Shown: positions 29,726 to 50,514, counted from the stretch's first letter. The stretch is DNA of 64,000 bases from Nocardioides sp. (GCF_029937575.1 NZ_JAPYPS010000016.1:3706-67705), one strand, 5' to 3'. The notes: generated by a model from the sequence alone, not told the origin. Numbers and translations are program-made.

Positions 29726-29749
29726 GTGAGCATCCTCACGCAGCAATCA

Positions 29750-29762
29750 GACACGTGTCCAG
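29750..29762. promoter_or_regulatory. GACACGTGTCCAG motif (core 10-bp palindrome GACACGTGTC)
   Basis: Located in the 89-bp divergent promoter. An identical 13-mer is found at 42538-42550. Confidence 0.45.
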
Positions 29763-29793: not shown

Positions 29794-29814
29794 TCGAGCC
29801 TGTGCAATGGGACT

Positions 29815-31605
29815 GTGACCTACGACACCATCATCAACGGCGGGCGCTGGTTCGACGGGACCGGATCGGCCTCGGCCATCCGCAACCTCGGCATCACCGC
29901 CGGGGTGGTCGTCGAGGTCTCCTCCGGTCCGCTCGAGCCCGGGCCGGGCACCGAGGTCGTCGACGCACACGGCCAGTGGGTGATGCCGGGCATGGTCGAC
30001 ATCCACACTCACTACGACATCGAGGTGCTCGACGGACCGGGGCTGTCGGAGTCCGTGCGCCACGGGGTCACCACGATCATGATCGGCTCCTGCTCGCTCT
30101 CGACGGTCCACCTGGACGCCGTCGACGCCGGCGACATCTTCGGTCGCGTCGAGGCGATCCCGCGCCAGCACGTCATCGACGCCGTCACCGAGCACCAGAC
30201 CTGGTCGAGCGCCGCACAGTACGTCGACGCCCTCGAGCGGCTCCCGCTCGGACCCAACCTCGCGGCCTTCATCGGCCACTCCGACATGCGCGCCGCGACG
30301 ATGGGCCTCGACCGCGCGACGCGCCCGGACGAGAAGCCGACCGGCGCCGAGCAGTCGCGGATGGAGTCGATGCTCTCCGAGGCCCTCGACGCCGGGTTCC
30401 TCGGGATGTCCTCGCAGCAGCTGCTCTTCGACAAGCTCGACGGCGAGGTCTGCCGCTCGCGCACCCTGCCCTCGACGTACGCCAAGGCGCGCGAGCTGCG
30501 GCGGCTCAACTCGATCCTGCGCCAGCGCGCCCGGGTGCTGCAGTCCGGCCCCGACATCACCCACCCGCAGAGCCTTCTCTCGCAAGCGCTCAGCTCGCTC
30601 GGCGTCGGACGCCCGCAGCTCAAGACCTCCCTGCTCTCGGCCGCCGACATCAAGGCGATCCCCGCCGTCATCCACGGGATGGGTCCGCTCGCCCGGGCGA
30701 TCAACAAGCTCGGCGGAGACTTCCGCTGGCAGCACCTCCCCGTCCCCTTCGAGGTGTACGCCGACGGCATCGACCTGGTGATCTTCGAGGAGTTCGGCTC
30801 CGGTGCCGCAGCCCTGCACCTCGCCGACGCCGTGGCGCGCGACGAGCTGCTGCGCGACGAGGACTACCGCCGTCGGTTCCGCAAGGACTACGAGGCGAAG
30901 TGGGGACCGCGTGTGTGGCACCGCGACCTCTTCGACGCCGAGATCGTCGAGTGCCCCGACGCCTCGATCGTCGGCAAGTCGTTCGGCGCCGTCGGCCAGG
31001 AGCGCGGGGGCGTGCACCCCGTGGACGCCTTCCTCGACCTCGTCCTCGAGCACGGCACCGCCATCCGCTGGCGCACCACGATCTCCAACCACCGCCCCGA
31101 GCTGCTCAAGAAGATCGCGGTCGAGCCCGGCGTACAGCTCGGCTTCTCCGACGCCGGCGCCCACCTGCGCAACATGGCGTTCTACAACATGGGCCTGCGC
31201 TTCCTGCGCCACGCCCACGACGCCGAGCTCGCGGGCAAGCCCTTCATGACGATGGAGCACGCCGTGCACCGTCTCACCGGCGAGCTGGCCGACTGGTACA
31301 GCGTCGACGCCGGGCACCTGCGCGTCGGCGACCGCGCCGACCTGGTGATCCTCGACCCGGCCCACCTCGACTCCGACCTCGACGACTACCACGAGAGCCC
31401 GGTCGAGCAGTTCGGCGGACTCTCCCGGATGGTCAACCGCAACGACGCCTGCGTCTCGCGCGTGCTGATCTCCGGACGCACTGTGGTCGAGGCGGGCGAG
31501 CCGACGGCCCTGCTCGGAGCCGAGCGGACCGGGTCGTTCCTGCGGGTGGGGCAGAAGGTGGCGCCGCGGGTCCCGGTCGAGGCGGCCGGCGCCGCGGCGC
31601 TCTGA
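29815..31605 (+). CDS. Amidohydrolase, N-acyl-D-amino-acid deacylase (D-aminoacylase)-like
   Basis: GTG 29815 gives (M)TYDTIINGGRWFDGTG, followed by MPGMVDIHTHYD (HxH metal site). The ORF track starts at 29719 inside the promoter palindromes. Confidence 0.8.
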   Translation: MTYDTIINGGRWFDGTGSASAIRNLGITAGVVVEVSSGPLEPGPGTEVVDAHGQWVMPGMVDIHTHYDIEVLDGPGLSESVRHGVTTIMIGSCSLSTVHLDAVDAGDIFGRVEAIPRQHVIDAVTEHQTWSSAAQYVDALERLPLGPNLAAFIGHSDMRAATMGLDRATRPDEKPTGAEQSRMESMLSEALDAGFLGMSSQQLLFDKLDGEVCRSRTLPSTYAKARELRRLNSILRQRARVLQSGPDITHPQSLLSQALSSLGVGRPQLKTSLLSAADIKAIPAVIHGMGPLARAINKLGGDFRWQHLPVPFEVYADGIDLVIFEEFGSGAAALHLADAVARDELLRDEDYRRRFRKDYEAKWGPRVWHRDLFDAEIVECPDASIVGKSFGAVGQERGGVHPVDAFLDLVLEHGTAIRWRTTISNHRPELLKKIAVEPGVQLGFSDAGAHLRNMAFYNMGLRFLRHAHDAELAGKPFMTMEHAVHRLTGELADWYSVDAGHLRVGDRADLVILDPAHLDSDLDDYHESPVEQFGGLSRMVNRNDACVSRVLISGRTVVEAGEPTALLGAERTGSFLRVGQKVAPRVPVEAAGAAAL

Positions 31606-32978: not shown

Positions 32979-33028
32979 GGGTCGTGTGCCTCACAACGGC
33001 CCATGGACCGGCCTCAGGCACACGACCC
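32979..33028. repeat. 50-bp hairpin (REP-like) repeat, copy D
   Basis: Differs from copy C at one base and lies exactly 93 bp downstream of it. Confidence 0.85.
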
Positions 33029-33053
33029 GTACGCCGGCCGGGTGGACAGACCA

Positions 33054-33950
33054 TCACGCCGCGTCGAGGAACTCCGCCACCAGCGCGTTGACGACCTCGG
33101 GGCGCTCCACCTGCAGGAAGTGGCCCACGCCCGGCACGAGCATCGCGCGGCTCTCACCCGTCAGCGCCAACGAGGCGCCGGTGAAGAACCGGCGGTCCAG
33201 GCAGCCGTCCTGGTCGCCCTGGAGGAATAACGTCGGCACGATCGGCGAGTCGGCGAACGTGCGGTGCCAGTCGGCGTACGCCCGCGCACCGCGGCCGGGG
33301 CGCAGGAACGCCCGGTAGTAGGACACCACGGCCTGGGCGTGGGCGCGGTCGGGCACCGACGAGAGCAGGAAGTCGAGATCCTCTCTGGAGTCGTAGCCCG
33401 GCGACCAGTCGTGCCAGAGCTTGGTGACCAGGCGCTCGAAGTGGCGCTCGGCCAGGCCGGGGACCTGGTTGAAGGCGATGTACCAGCTGTTGCGTGGCTG
33501 GCGCACCGCGGCCCCGAGCCACGCCCCGAGCCATTCGCGCGACGGGGTCATCGAGGGCAGCGGAGGGACGGCCATGGTCACGATCCGCCGGAACGGCGAG
33601 TCCGGGTGCGCGCCGAGGCCACTGGTCGCGATCGCGCCCCAGTCGTGCCCGACGAGCATCGAGCGGTCGTCACCCCCGAGTGCACCGTGCACGGCGACCG
33701 CATCGGCCATCAGCGAGCCCACCGTGTAGGTCTCGTCGCTGGGGACCGACGACGGTCCGTAGCCGCGCAGGAACGGCGCCGCCACCCGGTAGCCGCGCTC
33801 GGCGAGGTAGGGCCCCAGGTGGCGCCAGGTCCACGCGGTGTCGGGGAAGCCGTGCAGCGCCAGCACCAGCGGCGCATCGGCGTCGCCCCACTCCAGGACG
33901 CGTGAGGTGTACGTCGGCAGCGGGACCGCGACCACGCGAGGCAGGCTCAT
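33054..33950 (-). CDS. Alpha/beta hydrolase (epoxide-hydrolase-like)
   Basis: LVLALHGFPDTAWTWRH, the nucleophile region LVGHDWGA, and GVGHFLQVERPE. Confidence 0.85.
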   Translation of the reverse strand: MSLPRVVAVPLPTYTSRVLEWGDADAPLVLALHGFPDTAWTWRHLGPYLAERGYRVAAPFLRGYGPSSVPSDETYTVGSLMADAVAVHGALGGDDRSMLVGHDWGAIATSGLGAHPDSPFRRIVTMAVPPLPSMTPSREWLGAWLGAAVRQPRNSWYIAFNQVPGLAERHFERLVTKLWHDWSPGYDSREDLDFLLSSVPDRAHAQAVVSYYRAFLRPGRGARAYADWHRTFADSPIVPTLFLQGDQDGCLDRRFFTGASLALTGESRAMLVPGVGHFLQVERPEVVNALVAEFLDAA

Positions 33951-33978
33951 GGCCTCACCCTCCCAGACGCCGTCGAGC

Positions 33979-34410
33979 TCAGGCCTCGCTCGGGGCCGGC
34001 TTCGTCGCGCGTGCCGCGGCCCTGGCCGCCTTGGAGATCGTGTCCTCCACGATCGAGTTGAGCCGGGCCCCGTTGGGCCAGCCCGCGTAGTGGCACACGA
34101 AGATCACGATCTCGCGCAGCGCCTCGTCGTCCAGCTCGCCGTTGGCGTAGGCCGCAGGCACCTGGATGCCGAGCACGTCGGCGGCGCCCTGACCGGCCAG
34201 CATGCCGATCAGGATCAGCCGCCGGTCGCGGTCGGAGAGACCGGGTCGGGTCCAGATGTCGGCGAAGAGGTGGTCGGCGGTGATCCCGAAGAAGTCCCCC
34301 GTGCCGTCGGTCATGTCGAAGCCGTAGACGGTCTCCATCTTCTCCAGGCCGATCCGCCGCTTGTCCGGCAGCCCGTCGAACTTGCCCGTCGTCGCACTCT
34401 CGTCGGTCAC
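33979..34410 (-). CDS. Carboxymuconolactone decarboxylase (CMD) family protein
   Basis: IWTRPGLSDRDRRLILIGMLAGQG and ICHYAGWP-type VCHYAGWPNG. The start overlaps the upstream stop (4 nt). Confidence 0.85.
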   Translation of the reverse strand: MTDESATTGKFDGLPDKRRIGLEKMETVYGFDMTDGTGDFFGITADHLFADIWTRPGLSDRDRRLILIGMLAGQGAADVLGIQVPAAYANGELDDEALREIVIFVCHYAGWPNGARLNSIVEDTISKAARAAARATKPAPSEA

Positions 34411-35258
34411 AGTCCCAGTCCTGTCCTCAGTCGTCGCAGCGCCAAGTCGGCGAGCGGGGTGTCCACGCCGAGCGACTCGCCCAGCTCGGTCGCGAAGCGG
34501 AGGTCCTTCTCACCCAGGTCGGCGACATGGGAGAAGACCCCCATCCAGAAGTCACCGTCCTCGATCGGCGCGGCGGTCTCGCGGTGCATGATCGCCCCGG
34601 GGCCCCCGGTGATCGCGTCGGTGTGACGTACGACGTCGCCCAGCGCGCGCAGGTCGAGTCCCGCCGCCTCGGCGAGCCGCTGCGCCTCGGTCGCGGCGGT
34701 GAAGGAGATGAAGTGCATCATGTTGCGGGCGAGCTTGAACTTCGTGCCGGCGCCGATCGTGCCGGCATGGATCACCTTCGACCCCAGCGCGTCGAGGGCC
34801 GGCCGTGCGGCGGCGAAGGCCTCGTCGGTCCCGCCGACCATGATGGCGAGGGTGCCGTCGGCCGCCCCCATCGCTCCACCGGAGACCGGAGCGTCCACGA
34901 GCAGCACGCCGTGCTTGGCGGCCGTGATCTCCAGCTGCCGCGGCGTCTCGGGGGCGACCGTGGAGTGCACGACGACCACGAGCCCGTCGCGAGCCGAGCC
35001 GAGCGCCTGGCCGAGCACGTCGCGGACCTGGTCGTCGTCGCGCACCATCACGCACAGCACGTCGACGTCGGCGACCAGCTCGGCGACCGAGCCCGTGACC
35101 GTCGCCCCGGCCGCCTCCAGCTCGGCGAGCGGCTCGGGCATCACGTCGTAGACCGACAGCGACAGCTCGCCCGATGCCTGCGCCCGTCGGGCCAGGCGCA
35201 GCGCCATCGGCTTGCCGATGTTGCCGAGCCCGACGAAGCCGACTGCCGTGCCGGTCAT
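34407..35258 (-). CDS. NAD(P)-dependent beta-hydroxyacid dehydrogenase-like oxidoreductase (3-hydroxyisobutyrate dehydrogenase family)
   Basis: ATG 35258 gives MTGTAVGFVGLGNIGKPMA, followed by DAPVSGG and GAGTKFKLARNM. There is an ATGA overlap with the upstream SDR. Confidence 0.85.
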   Translation of the reverse strand: MTGTAVGFVGLGNIGKPMALRLARRAQASGELSLSVYDVMPEPLAELEAAGATVTGSVAELVADVDVLCVMVRDDDQVRDVLGQALGSARDGLVVVVHSTVAPETPRQLEITAAKHGVLLVDAPVSGGAMGAADGTLAIMVGGTDEAFAAARPALDALGSKVIHAGTIGAGTKFKLARNMMHFISFTAATEAQRLAEAAGLDLRALGDVVRHTDAITGGPGAIMHRETAAPIEDGDFWMGVFSHVADLGEKDLRFATELGESLGVDTPLADLALRRLRTGLGL

Positions 35259-36007
35259 GAGCGGAACGTCTGGCCGCCGTCGACGGCGATGATCTGCCCG
35301 GTCACCCACGAGGCCTCGTCGGAGAGCAGGAAGAGGCACGCCCCGACCATGTCCTCGGGCTGCCCCATCCGCTTCAGTGCCAGGCCCTTGACCAGGTCCT
35401 TGGCAGCGTCCCCGGCCTGGGTGCGCGTGGCGGCGGTGTCGGTGGGGCCCGGCGCGATCGCGTTGACCCGGATCTCCATCCCGCCGACCTCGTGGGCCAG
35501 CTGCTGGGTCAGGCCGTTGACGCCGACCTTGGCGAGCCCGTAGAAGCCGGAGTAGAGGTAGGCAGCCGTCGAGCTCTGGTTGACGATCGAGCCGCCGCCG
35601 CGCGCCTGCATCGACGGGTAGACCGCGCGGGTCATCACGAGCGCGCCGTCCATGTTCACCGACATGAACTTCCGGTAGTAGTCCCAGTCGACGCTGATCA
35701 GCAGGTCGAACTGCATGTCGCCGTAGATGGCGGCGTTGTTGACCAGGCCGTCGATCCCGCCGTACGCCGCCGTGACGGCCTCGACCAGGGCGGTCGCCGA
35801 CTCGTGCGAGGAGACGTCGGTGCGCACGAACATCGCCGTACCGCCGTCGGCCTCGATCGCCTCGACGACACCGACGCCGGCGCCCTCGTTGAGGTCGGCG
35901 ACCACGACGGAGGCGCCCTCGGCGGCCAGCGCCCTGGCGTATGCCTCGCCGATGCCCTGGGCGGCGCCGGTGACGACGACGACCTTGTTGTCGAACCTGC
36001 TGCTCAT
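35255..36007 (-). CDS. SDR-family oxidoreductase
   Basis: VVVVTGAAQGIG, NNAAI, YGLAKVG (YxxxK) and APGPTDT. Confidence 0.9.
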   Translation of the reverse strand: MSSRFDNKVVVVTGAAQGIGEAYARALAAEGASVVVADLNEGAGVGVVEAIEADGGTAMFVRTDVSSHESATALVEAVTAAYGGIDGLVNNAAIYGDMQFDLLISVDWDYYRKFMSVNMDGALVMTRAVYPSMQARGGGSIVNQSSTAAYLYSGFYGLAKVGVNGLTQQLAHEVGGMEIRVNAIAPGPTDTAATRTQAGDAAKDLVKGLALKRMGQPEDMVGACLFLLSDEASWVTGQIIAVDGGQTFRS

Positions 36008-36070
36008 CTGGCTGTCCTTCTGGTTGCTGTGGTGGGTGCTGCTGCTTCCTGGCTCACGGGGTTTCGAGAC

Positions 36071-36112
36071 GCGTCACGCAGCCCGTCGCTTCGCTCCTGG
36101 CTGCGTCGACGC
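36071..36112 (-). other. Strong RNA hairpin in the 144-nt gap inside the CYP51 gene string
   Basis: GCGTC-ACGCAGCC pairs with GGCTGCGT-(C)-GACGC, giving 13 bp with a 1-nt bulge and a 15-nt loop. Confidence 0.45.
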
Positions 36113-36133
36113 TCCTCAACCCGCTCGCGGGCT

Positions 36134-36163
36134 TTTCCAGCGCTCGCAAGCTCACGCTGGAAA
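36134..36163 (-). other. RNA hairpin spanning the aldehyde dehydrogenase stop codon
   Basis: TTTCCAGCG / CGCTGGAAA forms a 9-bp stem. The 12-nt loop contains the stop codon at 36152-36154. Confidence 0.4.
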
Positions 36164-37624
36164 CGCGAGCGTCTTGGTCTCGAGGTACTCCTCGAAGCCG
36201 GCGACGCCCATCTCGCGTCCGATGCCGGAGTGCTTGTAGCCGCCGAAGGGCGCGTCCGGGCTGAACCACACGCCACCGTTGACGGCCAGCGTGCCGGTGC
36301 GGATGCGAGCGGCGACCGCGGTGGCGCGCTCGAGGGAGCCCGAGTCCACGGAGCCGGAGAGCCCGTAGGCCGAGTCGTTGGCGATGCGGACGGCGTCGTC
36401 GTCGCCGTCGTGCGCGATCACGACGAGCACCGGACCGAAGATCTCCTCCTGGGCGAGCCGCGAGGAGTTGTCGAGGCCGGCGATCACCGTGGGCTGGATC
36501 CAGTAGCCGTCCTGCTCGATGACCGCGCCGCCCGTGGCGAAGGTGCCGCCCTCCTCGACCGCCAGTCGCAGGTAGGCCTCCACCCGATCGCGCTGGACCG
36601 CAGAGATCACCGGGCCGCAGATGGCGCCGGGGTCGGACGGGTCCTTGGCCCCGATCGACTCCATCGTGGCGGCCGCGACCTGCACCGCCTCGTCGTACTT
36701 CTCGCGCGGGACGACGAGACGCGTGGTGATCGCGCAGCCCTGTCCCGCGTGGATGCACGCGGCGAACGCCGTGGCACCGGCCACCGCTCCCACGTCGGCG
36801 TCGTCGAGCGCGATCGCGGCCGACTTGCCGCCGAGCTCGAGGAAGACCCGCTTCAACGACGGTGCCGCGGCGGCCATGATCGCCTTGCCCACGCCGGTCG
36901 ACCCGGTGAAGGAGACCATGTCGACGCGCTCGTCGGTCGAGAGCACCGAGGCGACCTCGTTGGAGCGCGGCGTGACGACGTTGAGCACGCCGGCCGGGAT
37001 GTCGGTGTGCTCGGCGGCGAGCCGACCGAGCTCGCAGGCCACCCACGGTGTGTCCGGTGCCGGCTTGAGGACGACTGTGCACCCGGCCGCCAGGGCCGGG
37101 CCGATCTTGGCGAGGTTGATCTGGGTGGGGACGTTCCACGGCGTGATCGCAGCGACCACACCGATCGGCTCGCGCCGGACCGTGCGTCGCGAGGCGATGC
37201 CCATCGGGGAGGCGACACCGAGGTCGCTCTCGAAGGCGTAGGTCTCGGCGAGGTCGGTGACCCACTTCAGTCCGTCGACCGGCACGTCGAAGCCGGCAGC
37301 GCCCATCATGAAGTCGGGCATGCCGACCTCGGCGCGGGTGAGCGCCCGGAAGTCGTCGGCGTTGTCGAGCAGCGCCTGGTGGAGCTGGCGCAGGCAGCGC
37401 ACGCGCAGCTCGACGTCGGTGGACCAGTCGGACTCGTCGAAGGCCCGACGGGCGGCAGCGATCGCTCCCTCCACGTCCGCGGCCGTCCCGTCGGGGGCTT
37501 GGCCGATCTCGCGGCCCGTGGCGGGATTGAGGATCGGGTACGTCGTGCCGTCCGAGGCGCCGACGAGCTTGCCGTCGATCAGCTGCTGCGGTGGCGGCGT
37601 CGACAGGACGGGCGTGTCGCTCAC
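36152..37624 (-). CDS. NAD-dependent aldehyde dehydrogenase
   Basis: GTG 37624 (VSDTPVL) overlaps the upstream stop (GTGA). Motifs ITPWNVP, FTGSTGVGK, ELGGKSA (catalytic Glu) and GQGCAI (catalytic Cys). Confidence 0.9.
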   Translation of the reverse strand: MSDTPVLSTPPPQQLIDGKLVGASDGTTYPILNPATGREIGQAPDGTAADVEGAIAAARRAFDESDWSTDVELRVRCLRQLHQALLDNADDFRALTRAEVGMPDFMMGAAGFDVPVDGLKWVTDLAETYAFESDLGVASPMGIASRRTVRREPIGVVAAITPWNVPTQINLAKIGPALAAGCTVVLKPAPDTPWVACELGRLAAEHTDIPAGVLNVVTPRSNEVASVLSTDERVDMVSFTGSTGVGKAIMAAAAPSLKRVFLELGGKSAAIALDDADVGAVAGATAFAACIHAGQGCAITTRLVVPREKYDEAVQVAAATMESIGAKDPSDPGAICGPVISAVQRDRVEAYLRLAVEEGGTFATGGAVIEQDGYWIQPTVIAGLDNSSRLAQEEIFGPVLVVIAHDGDDDAVRIANDSAYGLSGSVDSGSLERATAVAARIRTGTLAVNGGVWFSPDAPFGGYKHSGIGREMGVAGFEEYLETKTLAFPA

Positions 37625-38259
37625 TGGACGGGCTCCCCTGCTGAGGTCTGGGTGACGTAGTCGCCGCGCTCGACGGGCGGTGGCCACACGGGAGAGGGGA
37701 TCTCGTCGTAGTGGTAGTGCCCGGGGACATCGTGACCGGCGACCTCCATCCGCTTGAGCAGGGTCTCGGGGGCCTTGCCGGCCTTGATGATCTCGACGAA
37801 GGTGTGCGCGGTCGACGGCATGTCGAACCAGTCGCGCTGCCAGGCGAACTTCAGCAGCCCGTCGTCGGCCCCGCCGACCTGGCGCTCGACGCCGAACCAC
37901 GAGCCGCCGATCCCGAGGATCTCGTACTCCCGGCCGGTCTCGTCGTTGACGATCCCGGACTTCTGCTTCCAGAAGCCGAGCACCATGCCCTTCGCCTCGT
38001 CGATCATCGAGCACTGGTAGTCGTAGTGCCAGCCGTCGAGACCGTCCATCTCGATACCGATGGCCCAGTCCCGGATCTGGTCGCGCCCGACCGCCATGAA
38101 GTGCTCGTCGGGGCTGTACATCCAGCCGTACGACGCGTCCTCGGCGTACCACTGCGCCATCGCCCGCCAGTCGCCCGAGGCCTCTGCCTCGCGGTTGACC
38201 TGGAGCCAGGTCTCCCAGAACTCCTCGATCTCTGCGCGGGTCAACGTGCTCTCGGTCAT
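37621..38259 (-). CDS. NTF2-like (SnoaL-type) protein, counterpart of the conserved hypothetical next to mycobacterial cyp51
   Basis: ATG 38259 (MTESTLTRAEIEEFWETWLQVN) forms an ATGA overlap with the ferredoxin stop. The assignment is by position and fold-type composition only. Confidence 0.65.
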   Translation of the reverse strand: MTESTLTRAEIEEFWETWLQVNREAEASGDWRAMAQWYAEDASYGWMYSPDEHFMAVGRDQIRDWAIGIEMDGLDGWHYDYQCSMIDEAKGMVLGFWKQKSGIVNDETGREYEILGIGGSWFGVERQVGGADDGLLKFAWQRDWFDMPSTAHTFVEIIKAGKAPETLLKRMEVAGHDVPGHYHYDEIPSPVWPPPVERGDYVTQTSAGEPVQ

Positions 38260-38465
38260 GACCGGTCCTCCTCGATCGCCAGCGCCATCGCTGGGCAGTA
38301 GGTGACGGCCGCAACGACCTGCGACCGGAGACTCTCGTCGGGGCTCTCGTCGAGGACGACGACGACGTCGGCCTCCTCGTCGAAGGCGAAGACGTCGGGC
38401 GCCTCGCCCTGGCACATCTGGTGGCCTTGGCAGATGTCGCGGTCCGCGACGACGTGCAGGCTCAC
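38256..38465 (-). CDS. Small single-cluster ferredoxin (3Fe-4S type)
   Basis: A 69-aa tail of ORF 38256..39359, starting at GTG 38465: VSLHVVADRDICQGHQMCQGEAPDVF...TYCPAMAL. There is a GTGA overlap with the CYP51 stop. Confidence 0.8.
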   Translation of the reverse strand: MSLHVVADRDICQGHQMCQGEAPDVFAFDEEADVVVVLDESPDESLRSQVVAAVTYCPAMALAIEEDRS

Positions 38466-39838
38466 TGCTGGCGCCGCACGTAGCGGGCCCGACACGGCCG
38501 CTGCAGCTGGATGACCATCTTGGAGTAGTCGTCGCGATAGGTCTCGCTGGGTTGGACGAGCTCGAACTCGAAGTCGCGCAGCAGCACCGAGAAGATCGCC
38601 TTGATCTGCATCATCGCGAAGGCATTGCCCACGCAGCGGTGCTTCCCGGCGCCGAACGGGATCCAGGTCCAGCGGTTCTGCAGGTCCTCCTGGCGTCCGT
38701 CGCGATACCGCGTCGGATCGAAGGACTGCGGCTCCGGGAAGTCCTCGGCGAGCCGGTTGGAGACCCGCGGCGACGACGCCACGATCGTGCCCGGGGGGAT
38801 CAGGTGACCGGCGAGCTCGATCTCCTCGACGACCTGGCGCATCAGGATGATCAGCGGCGGGTGCAGGCGCAGGGTCTCCTTGATCACCGACTCGAGCTGG
38901 GGGATCGAGCGCAGCGCCTGGAAGGAGATCTCCACGCGACCGTCGGGGCCGTCGGCGTACAGGTCGTCGAGCTCGGTGACCACCTCGGCCATCACGTCGG
39001 GGTGCCGCATCAGCTCGATCAGGCTCCACGCCGAGGTGCCGGACGAGGTGTGGTGGCCGGCGAAGAGCATCGAGATGAAGACGCCGGTGATGTAGTCGGC
39101 ACTCATGTCCAGCGAGATCAGCACGTCGAGCAGGTCGCGCTGGTCCTTGGGCACGGTGCCCCGCACCCGACGGCGGTCGATGATGTCCTGCACCAGCGCG
39201 ACCAGCGTCTCGCGCGAGCGGTCGCGGATCTCGAAGGACTCGACGCCCTCCATGTAGGGGTCGACGTAGGCGAGCGCGTCGGTGCCGCGCTCGAGCCCGT
39301 GGTAGGCCGCCGCGAAGCGGGCGTCGATCTCCTCGCGGAACGGCAGCCCGACCAGGCACGCGGCGGTGTTGTAGATCGTGAGCTCGGCGAAGAAGTCGAG
39401 CAGGTCGACCTCACCCTCGTCGCCCCAGTCGGCGACCATCCGGTTGATCTCGTTCTCGATGGTGGTGGCGTGCCCGCGCATCTGGTCGCCGCGCAGCGCC
39501 TGGTTCTTCAGGGCCTGCTGGCGCTCCTCCGGCGAGGCGTCGAAGACCACGCCGTGGCCGAAGATCGGCGTCATGAACGGGTAGGCCGCGGCCTGGTCGA
39601 GGGTCGACTCGGGCGCCTTGAAGAACTGCTCGTTGGCCTCCGCACCCGTCACCATGATCACCTCCTTGTCGGCGATCCGGAACCGGCCGATGGCGCCGCA
39701 CTCGGCGTACACGCGCTCGAGCAGGGCGACCGGGTCGGTGCGGAGCTCGGCGAGGTGCCCGTGGCCGTCCTCGTCGGGGACGGCGACGGAGACCTCGGGG
39801 ATGTCGGCGACTCCGAGCGTGCGGTCGGTGACGGTCAT
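38462..39838 (-). CDS. cyp51: Cytochrome P450 CYP51 (sterol 14-alpha-demethylase family)
   Basis: ATG 39838 (MTVTDRTLG). Motifs AYPFMTPIFGHGVVFDASPE, LDFFAELTIY, FAGHHTSSGT, LRLHPPLIILMR and the heme loop WIPFGAGKHRCVG. These are near-colinear with my recollection of M. tuberculosis Rv0764c. Confidence 0.9.
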   Translation of the reverse strand: MTVTDRTLGVADIPEVSVAVPDEDGHGHLAELRTDPVALLERVYAECGAIGRFRIADKEVIMVTGAEANEQFFKAPESTLDQAAAYPFMTPIFGHGVVFDASPEERQQALKNQALRGDQMRGHATTIENEINRMVADWGDEGEVDLLDFFAELTIYNTAACLVGLPFREEIDARFAAAYHGLERGTDALAYVDPYMEGVESFEIRDRSRETLVALVQDIIDRRRVRGTVPKDQRDLLDVLISLDMSADYITGVFISMLFAGHHTSSGTSAWSLIELMRHPDVMAEVVTELDDLYADGPDGRVEISFQALRSIPQLESVIKETLRLHPPLIILMRQVVEEIELAGHLIPPGTIVASSPRVSNRLAEDFPEPQSFDPTRYRDGRQEDLQNRWTWIPFGAGKHRCVGNAFAMMQIKAIFSVLLRDFEFELVQPSETYRDDYSKMVIQLQRPCRARYVRRQQ

Positions 39839-40620
39839 GCGGGGTCCTCCACGGGTGCTTCGGGTGAGACTTCGATGAGGTTGAGGTGGACGCCGCGCGG
39901 GGCGGCGACGACCATCGCGATCGCGTCGGCGATCGCTTGCGGCTTCATGAAGTGCGGGTGGCGGGCGAGGCCGAACCTCACCCAGGCGTTGAGCACCGTG
40001 GCCGCCTCGTCGGCGTCCCAGTCGGCGCCCATCTCGCTCCACGTCGGGCCGGGCCGCACGATCGAGGCCCGGACGCCGGAGCCCTCGAGCTCCATCTGCA
40101 GCGCGTGGGCCATCCCCTCCAGCCCCCACTTGCCGGCGGCGTACGACGACATGAACGGGCGGGCGCGTACCGCGACGTCGGAGGAGACGAAGACGACGTC
40201 CCCGCGACGACGCTCGATCATCGCCGGCACGAAGGCACGCACGAGGCGGTGCGCGCCGGTGATGTTGAGGTCCAGTTCGCGGGAGAACCGCTCGGAGTCG
40301 ACCTCGGCGATCAGCCCTGGCGCGACCGCGCCGGCGTTGGAGACGACGGTCTCGATGTCGCCCAGCGCCTCGGTGACCTCGACGGTGAACTGCTTGACCG
40401 AGTCGTCGTCGGTGATGTCGAGTGCGGCGACCGCGACCTCTCCCCCGGTCTCGCGGATCTGCGCGGCGACCTCCTCGAGCTTGTCGACGCGGCGAGCACC
40501 CAGCGCGACCGGGTAGCCGGCCGCAGCGAAGGTCAACGCCGTCGCGGCGCCGATCCCGGACGAGGCGCCGGTGATGACGGCCGGGCGTCGCTCAGGACGC
40601 TCGTACGTGGCTCTGCCCAT
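39835..40620 (-). CDS. SDR-family oxidoreductase
   Basis: VITGASSGIG, NAG, and YAAGKWG (YxxxK). Confidence 0.88.
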   Translation of the reverse strand: MGRATYERPERRPAVITGASSGIGAATALTFAAAGYPVALGARRVDKLEEVAAQIRETGGEVAVAALDITDDDSVKQFTVEVTEALGDIETVVSNAGAVAPGLIAEVDSERFSRELDLNITGAHRLVRAFVPAMIERRRGDVVFVSSDVAVRARPFMSSYAAGKWGLEGMAHALQMELEGSGVRASIVRPGPTWSEMGADWDADEAATVLNAWVRFGLARHPHFMKPQAIADAIAMVVAAPRGVHLNLIEVSPEAPVEDPA

Positions 40621-40623
40621 GCC

Positions 40624-41928
40624 TCAGCGCACCTCGATCGAGGGGACCGGGACCGAGGAGAATCCGCGCACGCTGACCGAGTGCACGCGCAGGCACTCGT
40701 CGTGGGCGACCTGGATCCGCTTCACCCGGGTGACCAGCTCGCGCAGCGCGATCCGCGCCTCGAGCCGCGCCAGGTTGGCACCGAGGCAGAAGTGCCGCCC
40801 CCCGCCGAAGCTGACCGACTGCGACAGCTCCTCCTTCGGCCTGTGGAGGTCGAACTCGTCGGCCCTGGTGAAGACGCGCTCGTCGCGGTTGGCCGAGCCG
40901 ATGCACAGCGCGAGCTTGGCGCCGGCCGGCGCGACGACACCCTCGACCTCGACGTCGGCCAGGAGGTGTCGGGCCAGCACCTGGCTGGAGGTGTCGAAGC
41001 GCAGGGTCTCCTCGATCCACGGGTCGACCAGGTCGAGACCCGACGCCAGCTCTGGTGCGGCGAAGACGTCGTCGTACTGGCTCGGGTGGCGGGTCAGGTG
41101 GAACAACGCGTGACCGAGCAGCTTGGTGGTCGTCTCGTTGCCGGCCACGACCATCAGGAAGAGGAACGCGATGATCTCGTCGTCCTCGAGCTTGTCGCCG
41201 TCGATCTCGGCGGCCAGCAGCGCCGAGGTGAGGTCGTCGGTCGGCTGCTTCTTGCGCGCGGCGACCATCTCGGCGTAGTAGACGACGAGGTCCAGCGACG
41301 CGGTCACGCCCGCCTCGGGTACGTCGTGCACGCCGTCCTCGCGGTGCACCACGACGTCGGCCAGGCGCCGCACCTCGTCCCGGTCGGCCTGCGGCACCCC
41401 CATCATCTCGGAGATGACGTCCATCGGGAGCAAGCCTGCGAAGTCCTTGATCCAGTCGAACCCCTGCCCACTCTCGGCGAGCTCGACGCAACGGGTGAGG
41501 TAGCGGTCGGTGAGGCGCTCGATCTGCGGCGCGAGCTCGGTGACCCGGCGCGGCGTGAAGCCCTTGGACACCAGCGAGCGCAGCCGCTTCTGCCGGTCAC
41601 CGTCCATCCCGAGGAACGACATCACCTTGTGGGCGTGCGGTCCCCAGGCACTGGGCTCGAGGGAGACCCCCATCGCGTTGGAGTAGACGCCCTCGGTGCG
41701 GAACGCCTGCTGCACGTCGGCGTGGCGAGTGAGGACCCAGAAGTCGTGGGTCGTGTTGTGGTGCAGGGGCTCCTCGGCGCGGCAGCGGGCGTAGACCGGG
41801 TAGGGGTCCTCCTGGAAGCCGTAGTCGAACGGGTCGAAGACGATCGGGCCAGATCCGGTCGGGCCAGATCCGGTCGGGCCGGGTCCGGTCGGGTCGCCGG
41901 CGTCGCGGCGGGTGTCGGTGGTCGTCAT
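40624..41928 (-). CDS. Cytochrome P450 (CYP123-like by sequence recollection and position)
   Basis: ATG 41928 (MTTTDTRRD). Motifs VVAGNETT, EETLRFD and the heme loop FGGGRHFCLGANLAR. The ORF-track extension to 42609 overlaps the TetR gene in another frame and was rejected. Confidence 0.88.
   Translation of the reverse strand: MTTTDTRRDAGDPTGPGPTGSGPTGSGPIVFDPFDYGFQEDPYPVYARCRAEEPLHHNTTHDFWVLTRHADVQQAFRTEGVYSNAMGVSLEPSAWGPHAHKVMSFLGMDGDRQKRLRSLVSKGFTPRRVTELAPQIERLTDRYLTRCVELAESGQGFDWIKDFAGLLPMDVISEMMGVPQADRDEVRRLADVVVHREDGVHDVPEAGVTASLDLVVYYAEMVAARKKQPTDDLTSALLAAEIDGDKLEDDEIIAFLFLMVVAGNETTTKLLGHALFHLTRHPSQYDDVFAAPELASGLDLVDPWIEETLRFDTSSQVLARHLLADVEVEGVVAPAGAKLALCIGSANRDERVFTRADEFDLHRPKEELSQSVSFGGGRHFCLGANLARLEARIALRELVTRVKRIQVAHDECLRVHSVSVRGFSSVPVPSIEVR
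41845..41889. repeat. In-frame 15-bp tandem repeat (CGGGCCAGATCCGGT x2 plus one variant) at the 5' end of the P450 gene
   Basis: Encodes the (GPTGS)-type N-terminal tract. Confidence 0.8.
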
Positions 41929-42542
41929 CAGACGTTGCCTCGCAGGATCGTGGCGACGACGGTGTCGAGCCGGTCGCCCATCTCGGTGTAGGTCAGCAGG
42001 CCCATGCCCGCCTGCAGCAGGGCGCCGGAGAAGGCCAGGGTCAGTGCCTCGACGAGCTCCTCGTCCCCATCCCCGTTCCCATCCCCGGCCTCGTCTCCGG
42101 TCTCGTCTCCGGCGAGGGCGTCGCTGAAGCGCCGCACGAACTCGGCGCCGATCCGCAGCCGCAGGCGCTCCACGTCGGGGTCCGAGCTGAGCAGCGCCGG
42201 CGTGACCGCGGCCGCCAGTTCGGGGGCGGCGGCCAGCCGCTGCGCCATCTGGCGGGTGACGCTGCGGACCCGGTCGACGGCGTCGGCGCCACTCGCCTCG
42301 TGCTCGGCGTCCTCGGCGAGGTAGCCGAGGAAGAGCTCGGCGAAGAGGTGGTTCTTCGAGGCCAGGTAGGTGTACGCGGTGGCGGGCGAGACCCCGGCGC
42401 GCGCGGCGACCGTGCGCACCGTGAGGGCCTCGTGGCCGACGGAGCGCAGCTCCTCGTCGCCGGCGACGAGGAGCTTGGTCAGCGTCTCCGCCTGCCGGGA
42501 CCGCAGGCCTTGCCGGGGACTTCTGAACACTTGACTGGACAC
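41928..42542 (-). CDS. TetR family transcriptional regulator (first gene of the P450/CYP51 string)
   Basis: HTH LTVRTVAARAGVSPATAYTYLASKNHLF. It starts at GTG 42542, and its stop shares 1 nt with the P450 ATG. Confidence 0.88.
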   Translation of the reverse strand: MSSQVFRSPRQGLRSRQAETLTKLLVAGDEELRSVGHEALTVRTVAARAGVSPATAYTYLASKNHLFAELFLGYLAEDAEHEASGADAVDRVRSVTRQMAQRLAAAPELAAAVTPALLSSDPDVERLRLRIGAEFVRRFSDALAGDETGDEAGDGNGDGDEELVEALTLAFSGALLQAGMGLLTYTEMGDRLDTVVATILRGNV

Positions 42543-42550
42543 GTGTCCAG
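42535..42550. promoter_or_regulatory. Perfect 16-bp palindrome CTGGACACGTGTCCAG overlapping the TetR start codon
   Basis: Read directly. It lies 2 nt from the KstR-type box. Confidence 0.5.
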
Positions 42551-42552
42551 AC

Positions 42553-42566
42553 TAGAACGAGTTCTC
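42553..42566. promoter_or_regulatory. KstR-type operator (TAGAACGAGTTCTC)
   Basis: One arm mismatch relative to TAGAAC-NN-GTTCTA. It lies 10 nt upstream of the TetR GTG 42542. Confidence 0.55.
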
Positions 42567-42755
42567 GGGCGCGCGCAAGGTCTCGCGTCGGGAGAGCCCG
42601 CTGAGTCACCGCCGAGCCCGTAGCGCGAGCACCCGCGCCAGGAATCGCGTGACCGGCAGCTCTCGCACCTGGCTCACGGACGCCTCACAGGAAGGGGACA
42701 TCCCCGAGGCCCACAGTCGGGGCACCGACGTACCCGACCTGACCAGGAGCCACCG

Positions 42756-44000
42756 ATGTCGACATCCAGCATCCCGACCCCTACCGCCGGACCGTCGCGC
42801 CCGCCGCGACGCCGTCACCTCCGCCGCGTGGCTGCTGCCGTCGGCGCAGCAGCGCTGACCGCGCCGTTCGTGCTCGGTGTCGGCGCGCTCGGGGCGTCCG
42901 CGGTCGGCCCCGCGTCCGCCGGCGCGTCGCTGACGGCCACCCCCGGCATCGTGCAGGCCGCCGACCGGGGCGGCTACGGACCCTTCGGCGGCTACGCGTA
43001 CGGCGGGGCCTCCGGCTACGCGTACGGGTACGGCGGCGGACAGGGCGACTCAGGCCTCTCCGGCCTGCCCGGAGGGACCACCAGCACCTCCCTGGACACC
43101 AGCGACGCGACGGAGGAGCAGTCGGTCGGCCTCGCCCTGATCACCAGCACGCTCGACTACGGGGCAGGCGAGGCAGCCGGCACCGGCATGGTGATCGACG
43201 CCGACGGTCTCGTGGTCACCAACCACCACGTCGTCGCGGACGCGACCTCGCTCGAGGTCACCATCGCCGAGACCGGCGAGACCTTCGAGGCGACGTACGT
43301 CGGCGGAGACGCCACCCGCGACGTGGCGGTCCTCCGACTGACCGGCGCCACCGAGCTCACCCCGGTGGACCTCGACCCGACCGGCGTCGCAGAGGGTGAC
43401 GTCGTCACCTCGATCGGGGATGCCGGCGGCGACGGCGGTTCGCTGACCGCGGCCAGCGGCACCGTGACCGACGCCCGGACCGGGATCGAGGTGAGCAACG
43501 ACGACGGGTCGACGTCGCGGTTGCGCGCGTTGATCGAGGTCGATGCCGACATCGTCCCCGGCGACTCCGGCGGCGCTCTGCTCGACGCGGATGGTGAGGT
43601 CGCCGGGATGAATGTCGCGGCGTCGGGCGGCGGCACCGACATCACGGGCTACGCCATCCCGATCACCCGGGTCCTGAGGATCACCGAGGCGATCATCGAC
43701 GGGGACACCAGCAACGGAGTCGTCCTCGGCTACGAGGCGTTCCTCGGCGTAGAGCTGTCCGGAGCTGGCACGTCACCCGTGCTGGCCGGGGTGCTCGACG
43801 GCACCGCCGCGGCCACGGCAGGACTCGCTGCCGGCGACACGGTCACCGCCGTGGGCGACATCACCGTGACCACCGCCGACGAGCTCTCGTCCGCGATCGC
43901 CACGCACGCGGCCGGCGAGACGGTCAGCATCGCCTGGACCGACTCCGACGGCGCCGACCACGAGGCCGAAGCGACCCTCGGGGCCGCCCCCATCGCCTGA
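42756..44000 (+). CDS. Secreted trypsin-like (S1C/HtrA-like) serine protease with a C-terminal PDZ domain
   Basis: VVTNHHV (His), RDVAVLRL (Asp) and GDSGGAL (Ser). PDZ-like region GVLDGTAAATAGLAAGDTVTAVGD. The N-terminal linker is Gly/Tyr-rich. Confidence 0.88.
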   Translation: MSTSSIPTPTAGPSRPPRRRHLRRVAAAVGAAALTAPFVLGVGALGASAVGPASAGASLTATPGIVQAADRGGYGPFGGYAYGGASGYAYGYGGGQGDSGLSGLPGGTTSTSLDTSDATEEQSVGLALITSTLDYGAGEAAGTGMVIDADGLVVTNHHVVADATSLEVTIAETGETFEATYVGGDATRDVAVLRLTGATELTPVDLDPTGVAEGDVVTSIGDAGGDGGSLTAASGTVTDARTGIEVSNDDGSTSRLRALIEVDADIVPGDSGGALLDADGEVAGMNVAASGGGTDITGYAIPITRVLRITEAIIDGDTSNGVVLGYEAFLGVELSGAGTSPVLAGVLDGTAAATAGLAAGDTVTAVGDITVTTADELSSAIATHAAGETVSIAWTDSDGADHEAEATLGAAPIA

Positions 44001-47502: not shown

Positions 47503-48024
47503 TCAGCGCCGGAGGTAGGCCAGCTCGTCGAGCTCCGGGGCGGGCGTGGCGTAGATCTCGAGCCAGTCCAGCGCCCCGATCGGGCCCTCCAGCCCGACGT
47601 ACGGCAGACCCACGGCACGTTCGACCCGGCCCAGCAGCACGGCATCGGGACAGGCCACGGCGAGGTCGTCCTCGAAGCCGACGAAGCACAGCGACACCGT
47701 CCCGTCGGGCACGCCGGGCACCACGAAGTCGACCCGACGCGACACCGGACCGTCGTCCTCGACGGCCGTCAGACCGGCCACCGACAGTCCCGGGACGGCC
47801 CCGTCGGCCGGCAGGTAGCCGAGCCACGAGTCGTCGTCCGCGACGGTGCGATAGCTGTCGGAGACGCCGGCGTTCCCGGAGTTGCCGGCAACGCCGTCGT
47901 ACACCGCCAGCGCGACGAGCAGGCCCACGACCACCAGCAGCACCGGCCCCACCCGGCGCGCCAGCGCCCGCGCCCGCTCACCGCCGAAGGGCGGGCGTGC
48001 GGGTCGCGGGCTGCGGTGGTTCAC
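47503..48024 (-). CDS. Hypothetical membrane-anchored protein
   Basis: GTG 48024 overlaps the FadD17-like stop (GTGA). TM segment VGPVLLVVVGLLVALAVY. Confidence 0.5.
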   Translation of the reverse strand: MNHRSPRPARPPFGGERARALARRVGPVLLVVVGLLVALAVYDGVAGNSGNAGVSDSYRTVADDDSWLGYLPADGAVPGLSVAGLTAVEDDGPVSRRVDFVVPGVPDGTVSLCFVGFEDDLAVACPDAVLLGRVERAVGLPYVGLEGPIGALDWLEIYATPAPELDELAYLRR

Positions 48025-49613
48025 GTCAAGGCCAGACTCGGACCGTACGACGTGCCACGCGGCTGGCGCGACCAGAGGACGCCGTCGCCGGGCGTGATGC
48101 CCTCGGCGATGAGGGTGCGCTTGAGCACCTTGTTGGTCGCGGTGCTGGGCAGGGACGGCGCCAGCCGGACGAAGCGCGGCCACGCCTTGGGCGACAGGTC
48201 GGGCTGGGCGGCGAGGAACTCCTCGAGCTCGTCGGGCTCGAGGGTGGAGTCGTCGTTGAGCACGATGGCGGCCATCACCTGGTCACCCACGTCGTCGGGC
48301 ACGGCGTACACCGCCACCTGGTTGATCGCGTCCAGGCGGGTCAGGATCCGCTCGATCGGCGCGGCGGCGAGGTTCTCCCCGTCGACGCGCATCCAGTCGG
48401 CGGTGCGCCCGGCCAGGTAGATCCAGTCGTCGGCGTCCTTGTAGGCCAGGTCGCCAGACCAGTACATCCCGTGACGCATCCGGTCCTCGTTGGCCTTCGG
48501 GTCGTTGTAGTACCCCTGGAAGTAGCCGCCGCCCGTGGTGTTGACCAGCTCGCCGACGGCCTGGTCGGCGTTGGTCAGGGCACCGTGCTCGTCGAACTGC
48601 GCGACCGCGCACTCGGTGACGCTCGCGCTGTCGTAGATCGCGACGCCGTCCATCCCCTTGCCGATCGAGCCCGGCGGGCACCCGTCCTCGCGCAGGATGA
48701 TGATCGCCAGCTCGGTCGAGCCGAAGCCGTCCACCACCGAGCAACCGAAGCGACGGGCGAACTCGTCGATGTTGCGGTCGCCGGCCTCGTTGCCGAACGC
48801 GGTGCGCAGGGGGTTGTCGGCGTCGTCGGGCTGCTCGGGCGTCGCGAGCACGTAGGCCAACGGCTTGCCGACGTAGTTCATGTAGGTCACGCCATGGGTT
48901 CGTACGTCGTCGAGGAACCGGCTCGCGGAGAACTTCGTCGGCACCATGGCCGCCCCGGACCCGACCGCGACCGCCCAGCCGGCCACCACCGCGTTGGAGT
49001 GGAACAGCGGCATCGACAGGTAGCAGACGTCGTCGCTGGTCATCGAGAACCGGTCGACCAGGTTGAGGCCGGAGAAGAGCACCATCAGGTGGGCGACCTG
49101 CACGGCCTTGGGGTCACCGCTGGTGCCGGAGGTGAAGATCATCATGAAGGTGTCCATCGCCTCGACCTCGCGGTGCGGCGTCAGCGGTCCGGCCCCGGCG
49201 ATGAGCTCGGCCCACTCCCCGGTGGACGTGTCGAGCACCCGTACGTCGCCGAGGTCGAGGCCCTCGAGCAGCGGGTGATGCTCGTTGTCGGTGACCAGCA
49301 CCTGGCACTCCGAGCGACGGATGTCGGCGACCAGCCCGTCCCCACGCCGGGTGGTGTTGATGCCACACAGGGTGAACCCACCGAGCCCGGCCGCCGCCAT
49401 CATCCGCAGCATGTCCGGGCTGTTGCCGAGCAGCGTGCCCACGTGCACCGGCCGCTGGGCGTCCGCGATCCCGATCAGGGCGGCTGCGACCTGCGAGCTC
49501 TCCGAGATGTGCTCACGCCAGGTCTGCGACCGGCCGTCGTGGAGGATCGCGGTGCTGTCGTCCTCGGCGCGCTCGCGCAGCAGCTGCTGGACCGTCCCTG
49601 CCGTCGAGGCCAT
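48021..49613 (-). CDS. AMP-dependent acyl-CoA synthetase, FadD17-like
   Basis: MIFTSGTSGDPKAV, CYLSMPLFHSNAV, YVGKPLAYVLATPEQPDDADNPLR, GFGSTE and WMRVDGENL. The start shares 1 nt with the upstream stop. Confidence 0.88.
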   Translation of the reverse strand: MASTAGTVQQLLRERAEDDSTAILHDGRSQTWREHISESSQVAAALIGIADAQRPVHVGTLLGNSPDMLRMMAAAGLGGFTLCGINTTRRGDGLVADIRRSECQVLVTDNEHHPLLEGLDLGDVRVLDTSTGEWAELIAGAGPLTPHREVEAMDTFMMIFTSGTSGDPKAVQVAHLMVLFSGLNLVDRFSMTSDDVCYLSMPLFHSNAVVAGWAVAVGSGAAMVPTKFSASRFLDDVRTHGVTYMNYVGKPLAYVLATPEQPDDADNPLRTAFGNEAGDRNIDEFARRFGCSVVDGFGSTELAIIILREDGCPPGSIGKGMDGVAIYDSASVTECAVAQFDEHGALTNADQAVGELVNTTGGGYFQGYYNDPKANEDRMRHGMYWSGDLAYKDADDWIYLAGRTADWMRVDGENLAAAPIERILTRLDAINQVAVYAVPDDVGDQVMAAIVLNDDSTLEPDELEEFLAAQPDLSPKAWPRFVRLAPSLPSTATNKVLKRTLIAEGITPGDGVLWSRQPRGTSYGPSLALT

Positions 49614-50500: not shown

Positions 50501-50514
50501 TAGAACGTGTTCTA
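50501..50514. promoter_or_regulatory. KstR-type operator (TAGAACGTGTTCTA)
   Basis: Perfect arms. It directly abuts ATG 50500 of the LLM/FadD17-like operon. Confidence 0.65.

Follow-up and report, generated by a model that had tools for sequence, protein, structure and literature searches.

A probable Nocardioides orthologue of the mycobacterial hpoR/cyp51 cluster in a one-operon layout with HpoR- and KstR-type operators at its promoter

Introduction

Ever since the enzyme of Mycobacterium tuberculosis was described, it has been asked what CYP51 does physiologically in bacteria without sterol synthesis. The locus reported here, a string of ten genes around cyp51 at positions 33,979 to 42,566 of a 64,000-nt stretch of Nocardioides sp. 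DNA (GCF_029937575.1, NZ_JAPYPS010000016.1:3706-67705; ~71% GC; the whole stretch is referred to as the window), gives no answer to it and raises a question of its own: which regulators govern such a cassette? A preliminary description made from the sequence had placed the ten genes under a box of the type recognized by KstR, the repressor of cholesterol catabolism, and had taken this box together with a second palindrome as a tie to sterol-responsive control.

The reading that we prefer, and to which we assign a probability of roughly 0.7, is that Nocardioides has here its orthologue of the actinobacterial hpoR/cyp123/cyp51/fdx/aldA redox cluster, in a one-operon layout with two operators at its promoter. 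The hpoR operon has been described in M. smegmatis, M. tuberculosis and BCG (MSMEG_5855-5865, Rv0761c-Rv0771). Its TetR-type regulator HpoR (MSMEG_5860, Rv0767c) represses MSMEG_5855-5865 until cyclic di-GMP (c-di-GMP) rises under H2O2 stress, the phenotype of the cluster in mycobacteria is H2O2 resistance under c-di-GMP control, and the HpoR operator, (G/A)GACANNTGTCC, was DNase-footprinted and mutated in M. smegmatis (Li et al., NAR 2018, PMC5909442). The KstR regulon is characterized by the palindrome TAGAAC(N2)GTTCTA, which overlaps the -10 element of target promoters (Kendall et al. 2007, PMC1995591); the main text of that paper makes no mention of Rv0767c, Rv0764c, Rv0768, MSMEG_5860 or cyp51.

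Results

The ten genes correspond to the mycobacterial hpoR cluster and form one string throughout Nocardioidaceae

The window was compared with the 80 closest loci found by a scan of genome contigs (1.53 Mb, nearly all from Nocardioidaceae and none from mycobacteria). Mycobacterial loci were reached via the M. marinum CYP51B1 sequence rebuilt from a PDB alignment, which led to CYP51 proteins and from there to two loci, one of the M. ulcerans/marinum type (L081) and one from Mycolicibacterium thermoresistibile. Both consist of two divergent arms. One encodes a carboxymuconolactone-decarboxylase-family (CMD) protein, a HIBADH-like dehydrogenase, a short-chain dehydrogenase/reductase (SDR) and an aldehyde dehydrogenase, the other a TetR regulator, a P450, an SDR, CYP51, a ferredoxin, a 181-aa protein and a zinc-dependent alcohol dehydrogenase (Zn-ADH); purD adjoins the CMD gene in the M. 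ulcerans/marinum-type locus and lies a few genes further out in M. thermoresistibile. Each window protein matches best at the corresponding mycobacterial position, with 42-66% identity. The equivalence to Rv0762c-Rv0767c plus Rv0768-Rv0771, which the preliminary description had proposed, holds for all ten positional orthologues, and the two fetched loci also agree with its statement that the arms diverge in mycobacteria and are fused here without adhB. The window TetR protein shares 44% identity over 194 aa with its positional counterpart from M. thermoresistibile and has the same VSS…VF N-terminus; orthology and operator conservation (see below) together identify it as the predicted HpoR orthologue.

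What the window shares with the hpoR operon are ten gene families (P450s, SDRs, aldehyde dehydrogenase and oxidoreductase among them) with the TetR gene as the first of its set. The mycobacterial cluster, however, has two divergent arms with an HpoR box each and the Zn-ADH gene (adhB) behind the gene for the NTF2-like protein, whereas the window has one co-directional string with a single HpoR box, no adhB and an extra KstR-type box. The absence of two arms with two HpoR boxes from the window is a difference of layout, not of content.

All ten minus-strand intervals translate as uninterrupted open reading frames (ORFs) with the start and stop codons that had been noted, and the co-directional order, coordinates and junctions described earlier were all confirmed (Table 1). 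The TetR and P450 genes overlap by 1 nt (TGATG), the P450 and SDR genes are separated by 3 nt, six junctions are 4-nt ATGA or GTGA overlaps, and 144 nt (36008-36151) lie between the genes for aldehyde dehydrogenase and the second SDR. Stop and start codons that overlap by 1 or 4 nt at seven of the nine junctions, conserved across species, are the pattern expected for translational coupling. In the related loci, -4 or -1 is the commonest junction length everywhere except between the aldehyde dehydrogenase and second SDR genes, and the point at which the two mycobacterial arms are fused, NTF2-like gene to aldehyde dehydrogenase gene, is a 4-nt overlap in 60 of 67 loci. We infer a polycistronic, translationally coupled operon of ten, possibly eleven, genes.

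The fused string is not a special trait of this organism: searches with the window proteins (tblastn) recovered the same ten-gene co-directional order in about 50 of the 80 loci, including those of Actinomadura rifamycini and Aeromicrobium panaciterrae. With this recurrence and the conserved overlapping junctions the arrangement is far from what chance would produce, and on these comparisons the fused layout is the norm in Nocardioidaceae. Haloechinothrix holds part of it (CYP51, ferredoxin, NTF2, aldehyde dehydrogenase, SDR, HIBADH and CMD). In a Marmoricola-type variant the TetR and P450 genes are shifted to the tail of the string. The head promoters of such tail-TetR loci (L036, L040, L043, L045, L046, L068, L070, L072 and L079) retain the HpoR box, and behind it stands AATCAAGTGTCCAG, apparently what is left of the initial hpoR codons, which suggests that the hpoR/cyp123 pair moved from head to tail.

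The same layout has been tabulated for N. simplex VKM Ac-2033D, whose operon KR76_04930-04960 encodes TetR, cyp123, SDR, cyp51, ferredoxin, a hypothetical protein and aldehyde dehydrogenase (PMC7593942, Table S5; PMC7807495, Table S4). N. simplex has kstR, and a KstR site is predicted at this operon (PMC7593942; PMC7807495). It shares with the window the genus-level lineage, the co-directional order, the aldehyde dehydrogenase gene behind that for the hypothetical (NTF2-like) protein, and the predicted KstR site at the TetR gene. The link to KstR had thus already been predicted in those supplementary tables, and with the fused layout tabulated there as well the gain is incremental. The operon appears in supplementary tables only, which served for the comparison made here and do not go into the HpoR operator, the fixed operator geometry or the four distal genes. 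The conservation and fixed geometry of the KstR-type operator are described neither for N. simplex nor in other literature that we found.

The second palindrome is an exact copy of the HpoR operator

Upstream of the TetR gene, the minus strand reads CCTTGCGCGCGCCCGAGAACTCGTTCTAGTCTGGACACGTGTCCAG. The second palindrome of the preliminary description does exist (TGGACACGTGTCCA, 42536-42549); its proposed tie to sterol-responsive control did not stand up, as it contains an exact copy of the published HpoR operator. This operator lies inside a 16-bp palindrome, CTGGACACGTGTCCAG. On sequence grounds the second palindrome would tie the cassette to its own TetR regulator and, as far as mycobacteria are concerned, to c-di-GMP and H2O2, not to sterols. 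The fetched mycobacterial loci have two HpoR boxes, one per arm, and the one at the regulator gene follows a -10 element, TAACTT, and covers the start codon; the window thus has the identical 12-bp operator in the identical place, right behind a TANNNT -10 element and across the start codon of the regulator gene.

The HpoR operator is conserved at the operon head in 66 of the related loci, and 68 of the 91 HpoR-type boxes in the 1.53 Mb fall within 280-nt windows at the operon head (head windows). In almost all TetR-first loci the box is found at -6 of the TetR start. Where the TetR gene is at the tail, the box precedes the SDR gene at the head, and the TetR gene itself has none in front of it. 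Because the box stays at the operon head even when hpoR and cyp123 are at the tail, the whole string appears to be one HpoR-controlled unit. The possibility that the local TetR protein is KstR itself was considered and rejected: it scores 38 bits against the NF033703 model (cutoff 280) and reaches only E 2e-4 with KstR structures.

The putative promoter elements are conserved along with the operator (Table 1); the -10 position reads CANGCT in the group of L019, L024 and L041. In mycobacterial promoters, a TANNNT -10 element so close to the start codon predicts a leaderless transcript. With TANNNT ending 6 nt before the GTG codon, the operon transcript would likewise be leaderless and start at or next to GTG.

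A second exact HpoR-type box, AGACACGTGTCC (29749-29760), is located in a divergent region of the window, flanked on the minus strand by the gene for a luciferase-like monooxygenase (28619 to ~29724) and on the plus strand by that for an amidohydrolase (~29813-31605), and L001, L005 and L006 have HpoR-type boxes at a similar distance, ~10 kb from CYP51. The AGACACGTGTCC site is a candidate for an extra HpoR target.

A KstR-type box occupies the promoter in fixed geometries

The KstR core AGAACnnGTTCT is present without mismatch in the promoter box of the window, and the box agrees at 16 of 18 positions with the experimentally positive KstR site of MSMEG_2645. The palindrome resembles that of the KstR regulon and, by sequence alignment, would overlap the putative -10 element; the differences from the MSMEG_2645 site amount to 2 of 18 positions, and the other boxes of the window precede fadD-type genes. 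There are three AGAACNNGTTCT sites in the window, compared with 0.38 expected. Of 32 exact AGAACNNGTTCT sites in the 1.53 Mb, 23 fall in the head windows, which make up 1.45% of the sequence. The KstR-type box is more than 50-fold enriched at the cassette promoter across the family. Three geometries can be distinguished. The first, realized in 22 loci, the window and Haloechinothrix, has the box between the -35 and -10 elements, with a constant 17-nt offset to the HpoR box; in the second (eight loci) it is placed just upstream of the -35 element, and in the third (two tail-TetR loci) it overlaps that element. By these measures the KstR-type box is genuine and strongly enriched at the cassette promoter across the family.

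Two perfect KstR 14-mers are present elsewhere in the window, directly upstream of acyl-CoA ligase operons. The first, TAGAACGCGTTCTA (14544-14557), lies within the 20-nt space between an acyl-CoA synthetase gene (12836-14539, minus strand) and an antiporter-like gene. The other, TAGAACGTGTTCTA (50501-50514), abuts the ATG codon of a gene for an F420-dependent luciferase-like monooxygenase (LLM) family oxidoreductase (49613-50500, minus strand), which is followed by a gene for a FadD1/FadD17-like ligase (48021-49613). Just upstream of TAGAACGTGTTCTA is a second TetR gene (50582-51193), the product of which is not KstR (no KstR match at E <= 1e-5). In six loci (L052, L054, L065, L069, L073 and L077) the KstR box upstream of the -35 element adjoins CGTTGCGCAT, the reverse complement of ATGCGCAACG. 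The latter reads as the start of a divergent gene (MRN…) and equals the in-frame ATGCGCAACGG three codons into the window ORF for the F420-dependent LLM protein (49613-50500), which suggests that the corresponding operon neighbours the cyp51 cassette in these six loci.

Table 1. Promoter elements, operators and genes of the cyp51 locus, with positions in the 64,000-nt window
Feature	Position	Strand	Remarks
KstR-type box GAGAACTCGTTCTA	42553-42566	-	Core AGAACTCGTTCT at 42554-42565; fills the -35/-10 spacer, last TA common with -10
Putative -35 hexamer TTGCGC	42573-42578	-	In nearly all related loci TTGC keeps a constant distance to the HpoR box
Putative -10 hexamer TAGTCT (TANNNT type)	42549-42554	-	Ends 6 nt before GTG; TAnnnT abuts GGACA in almost all aligned loci and in mycobacteria
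HpoR operator GGACACGTGTCC	42537-42548		Exact match to the footprinted motif (G/A)GACANNTGTCC; spans GTG start codon 42540-42542
hpoR-like TetR repressor, 204 aa	41928-42542	-	TetR_N domain; positional orthologue of Rv0767c / MSMEG_5860
CYP123-like cytochrome P450, 434 aa	40624-41928	-	p450 domain; 52-53% to mycobacterial P450, Rv0766c position
SDR oxidoreductase, 261 aa, Rv0765c type	39835-40620	-	Passes NCBIfam PRK07775 (346 bits vs 260); 53% to mycobacterial orthologue
CYP51 (CYP51B1-type sterol 14alpha-demethylase homologue), 458 aa	38462-39838	-	PDB sequence matches and motifs
Small ferredoxin, 69 aa, Rv0763c type	38256-38465	-	Fer4_13 and Fer4_15; CQGHQMC…CP (CxxHxxC…CP) cluster motif; 43% to mycobacterial orthologue
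Predicted NTF2-fold protein, 212 aa, Rv0762c family	37621-38259	-	Orthologue domains and AlphaFold2 model
Aldehyde dehydrogenase, 490 aa, Rv0768 / AldA type	36152-37624	-	Passes TIGR04284 'aldehy_Rv0768' (786 bits vs cutoff 775); GTGA overlap with NTF2 gene
REP-like palindromic element	36060-36121	-	Occupies most of the 144-nt gap
SDR oxidoreductase, 250 aa, Rv0769 type	35255-36007	-	Passes PRK07774 (396 bits vs 303); 65% to mycobacterial orthologue
HIBADH-like NAD(P) dehydrogenase, 283 aa, Rv0770 type	34407-35258	-	NAD_binding_2 and NAD_binding_11; 48% to orthologue
CMD-family protein, 143 aa, Rv0771 type	33979-34410	-	CMD domain; 47% to orthologue
Possible eleventh gene, alpha/beta hydrolase, 298 aa	33054-33950	-	Starts 28 nt past CMD; strong GGGAGGGTGAGG ribosome-binding site upstream

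The gap before the second SDR gene is filled by a dispersed repeat

Only the junction between the genes for aldehyde dehydrogenase and the second SDR is variable: its length runs from -8 to 213 nt, and 12 of 65 loci show a 4-nt overlap. The window gap has the length given in the preliminary description and folds as a strong hairpin (-65 kcal/mol, z -3.1). It harbours an element of the structure GGTTGAGG-[GC-rich stem-loop]-CTCGAAACC, resembling repetitive extragenic palindromic (REP) sequences and belonging to a repeat family with 55 copies in the 1.53 Mb, of which 15 occupy this junction and 40 are scattered over other sites on both strands. In the two closest relatives that possess the junction it measures just 15 nt and lacks the element, and the flanks align cleanly with the window; for this reason we regard the gap as a REP-like insertion and not as a promoter region or as a feature of the cassette. 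A conserved cis-regulatory RNA was rejected as an explanation of the hairpin, as the element is dispersed on both strands and missing from the closest relatives; an Rfam search of positions 33000-43000, REP-like element included, returned nothing credible. Copies of the repeat are often intergenic within operons, sometimes in tandem, and occur also in L016, L022, L030, L039, L051, L066 and others.

Identity of the encoded enzymes

The P450s were named with the help of PDB sequences and positional orthologues, applying the rule of P450 nomenclature that members of a family share >40% identity with named members. NCBIfam offers no models for CYP51 or CYP123, and for both P450s of the window there were only sub-threshold matches to other P450s. 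The product of 38462-39838 matches CYP51 of M. tuberculosis (1e9x) with E 6e-185 and CYP51B1 of M. marinum (7tef) with E 2.5e-185; eukaryotic CYP51s outrank every other P450 family among its PDB matches. It is 61-63% identical to mycobacterial CYP51, above the 40% rule, and 95% identical to CYP51 from a Nocardioides metagenome-assembled genome. The signature motifs of the B'/BC loop, of helix I (AGHHTS at residue 260) and of the heme loop (FGAGKHRCVG at residue 395) are in place, YPFMTPIFGHGVVFD is present as well, and AYPFMTPIFGHGVVFD aligns with the M. marinum sequence. By similarity and motifs, the protein is a CYP51 family member, as had been assumed. A dedicated ferredoxin, adjacent or fused, is also known from the CYP51-ferredoxin fusion of Methylococcus capsulatus and from the CYP51s of sterol-producing bacteria (Lamb et al. 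2020, PMC7947880). There, CYP51 occurs in sterol-biosynthetic contexts, whereas the window, like M. tuberculosis, has no sterol-biosynthesis genes nearby.

The first P450, encoded between the TetR gene and the SDR-cyp51 pair, shares 52-53% identity with the P450 that occupies the Rv0766c-equivalent position in the two mycobacterial loci. We call it CYP123-like, a label that derives from positional orthology and not from a curated sequence of that name; a homologue search with the protein returned only Nocardioides proteins named 'cytochrome P450', which did not help with naming. The N. simplex orthologue is annotated as cyp123 (PMC7593942), and CYP123 of M. abscessus hydroxylates steroids in vitro.

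The weakest of the labels, that of the NTF2-like protein (37621-38259), also gained support. The SnoaL_2 match of the window protein itself is below threshold, and 17 of 24 orthologues match SnoaL_2. PDB sequence and profile searches with the protein yielded no match, and a single-sequence AlphaFold2 model was unusable (pLDDT 40). A model from 40 sequences was of medium quality (pLDDT 62, pTM 0.59), and its best fold matches in the PDB belong to the NTF2 superfamily only (E ~3e-4), the nearest being limonene epoxide hydrolase, SnoaL-like cyclases and ketosteroid-isomerase-like proteins. In some database sources close homologues are named 'nuclear transport factor 2 family protein'. The model thus supports an NTF2 fold. 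Pfam and NCBIfam scans are consistent with all ten gene labels, those given before to the TetR, P450, SDR, ferredoxin, aldehyde dehydrogenase, hydroxyacid-dehydrogenase-like and CMD proteins included. The CMD protein was also considered as an AhpD-type peroxidase, but its sequence shows no CxxC motif.

Discussion

Proposed mode of regulation

Taken together, the cassette is, as judged from sequence comparison, the known hpoR/cyp51 cluster in a lineage-wide single-operon layout to which a KstR-type operator has been added, and this is a family-wide arrangement, not a one-off. Across Nocardioidaceae the cyp123/cyp51/aldA set is one unit, in Haloechinothrix too, and in many species its promoter joins the HpoR operator with the box of the cholesterol-catabolism repressor KstR in fixed geometry. 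We propose that a single promoter (TTGCGC, 18 nt, TAGTCT), occupied by two TetR-type operators, starts a leaderless mRNA at or next to the GTG codon of the first gene. The protein most likely to bind the operator GGACACGTGTCC, which would lie across transcription start and start codon, is the one that the first gene encodes, resulting in autorepression, and by analogy with mycobacteria high c-di-GMP or H2O2 would relieve this repression. For the KstR-type box, covering spacer and -10 element, the most likely binding protein is a KstR orthologue whose gene lies in another part of the genome. Both repressors would have to be released for expression (an AND gate), whereupon the translationally coupled mRNA would be made. 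The two P450s with their ferredoxin, the NTF2-fold protein, aldehyde dehydrogenase, three NAD(P) dehydrogenases and the CMD protein could then oxidatively modify a sterol- or terpenoid-like lipid. The presence of two operators offers a reason why transcriptomes recorded under a single stimulus saw little induction, and a requirement for release of both repressors would account for the weak response of N. simplex to sterols alone.

Alternative explanations

Several observations weigh against this scheme, most of them concerning the KstR-type box. It deviates from the KstR operator TnnAACnnGTTnnA in the outer (first) T, which is G here, so that seven of eight specified positions match. Many related loci lack it, the near relatives L002-L004 among them; the nearest relative, L001, has it with one mismatch, and in L018, L029 and L037 it is reduced to degenerate remnants. 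Nor was it found in the fetched mycobacterial intergenic regions, where HpoR by itself explains regulation. There is no kstR gene within the 64-kb window, neither TetR protein of which is KstR. The N. simplex operon did not change significantly on phytosterol (PMC7593942), and on cholesterol and lithocholate the SDR gene KR76_04940 was the only one of seven genes to pass the thresholds, being up 9- and 16-fold (PMC7807495). Moreover, a consensus sigma-70 scan found no promoter, which is to be expected for a GC-rich actinobacterial promoter and makes the scan uninformative at this GC content, and the putative promoter TTGCGC, 18 nt, TAGTCT is assigned from its conservation. HpoR might therefore control the operon alone, the KstR-type box being a decaying relic or the target of another TetR-family protein, and sterol-dependent regulation would then not exist here. 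However, the core palindrome of the box is intact in the window, its more than 50-fold enrichment comes with three independent geometries, in each of which it overlaps or abuts core promoter elements, and the window has two more perfect boxes before fadD-type genes, and we consider control by HpoR alone rather unlikely. Of the original claim, the presence of a KstR-type box at the promoter is well founded, whereas sterol-responsive control is not borne out by its patchy occurrence among relatives, its absence from mycobacteria and the weak response in N. simplex.

The one-operon layout could also be questioned at the 144-nt gap, with the first six or seven genes forming the cyp51 operon and the last four (SDR, HIBADH-like, CMD and possibly the hydrolase) being transcribed separately or terminated there. 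The stability of the hairpin, the wide variation of gap length among species, the end of the N. simplex operon tables at the aldehyde dehydrogenase and the HpoR box owned by the mycobacterial aldA arm speak for such a division, and transcription of the last four genes could be attenuated at the REP-like hairpin. Motif and terminator scans, however, revealed no HpoR box, KstR box, promoter-like site or U-tract terminator in the gap; it is filled by a dispersed element that the closest relatives lack, the flanking genes overlap by 4 nt in some species, and tail-TetR loci have their sole HpoR box at the head. Two or more transcription units are, in our view, unlikely. Even less probable is a function of the cassette in pre-processing methylated sterols such as lanosterol, cycloartenol or obtusifoliol, in which CYP51 would remove the 14alpha-methyl group, CYP123, aldehyde dehydrogenase, SDRs and CMD protein would oxidize and remove other substituents, and the products would feed KstR-controlled catabolism. 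Such a function would fit the KstR-type box, the CYP51 family membership, the steroid hydroxylation by CYP123 in vitro, the NTF2 fold like that of ketosteroid isomerase and epoxide hydrolase, and the induction of KR76_04940 by cholesterol and lithocholate. Yet what the cluster is known for in mycobacteria is c-di-GMP-controlled resistance to H2O2, sterols leave most genes of the N. simplex operon unaffected, and the enzyme roles are speculation from family names. It is with equally strong doubt that we mention its extension, by which CYP51 would be the entry enzyme of sterol pre-processing in actinomycetes that make no sterols, the operon preparing fungal or plant sterols of external origin for KstR-controlled catabolism by taking off the 14alpha-methyl group, perhaps with further methyl groups, and firing only when a sterol-derived KstR ligand and the HpoR signal coincide, as a two-repressor AND gate within a leaderless promoter.

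Additional observations

Among the related loci, only L001-L003 and L006, the closest relatives, have the gene for the alpha/beta hydrolase (33054-33950). In the M. ulcerans-type locus L081, hpoR (7544-7963) is called as 139 aa only and the HIBADH-like gene is split into two ORFs, which is consistent with pseudogenization of parts of the cluster in that lineage.

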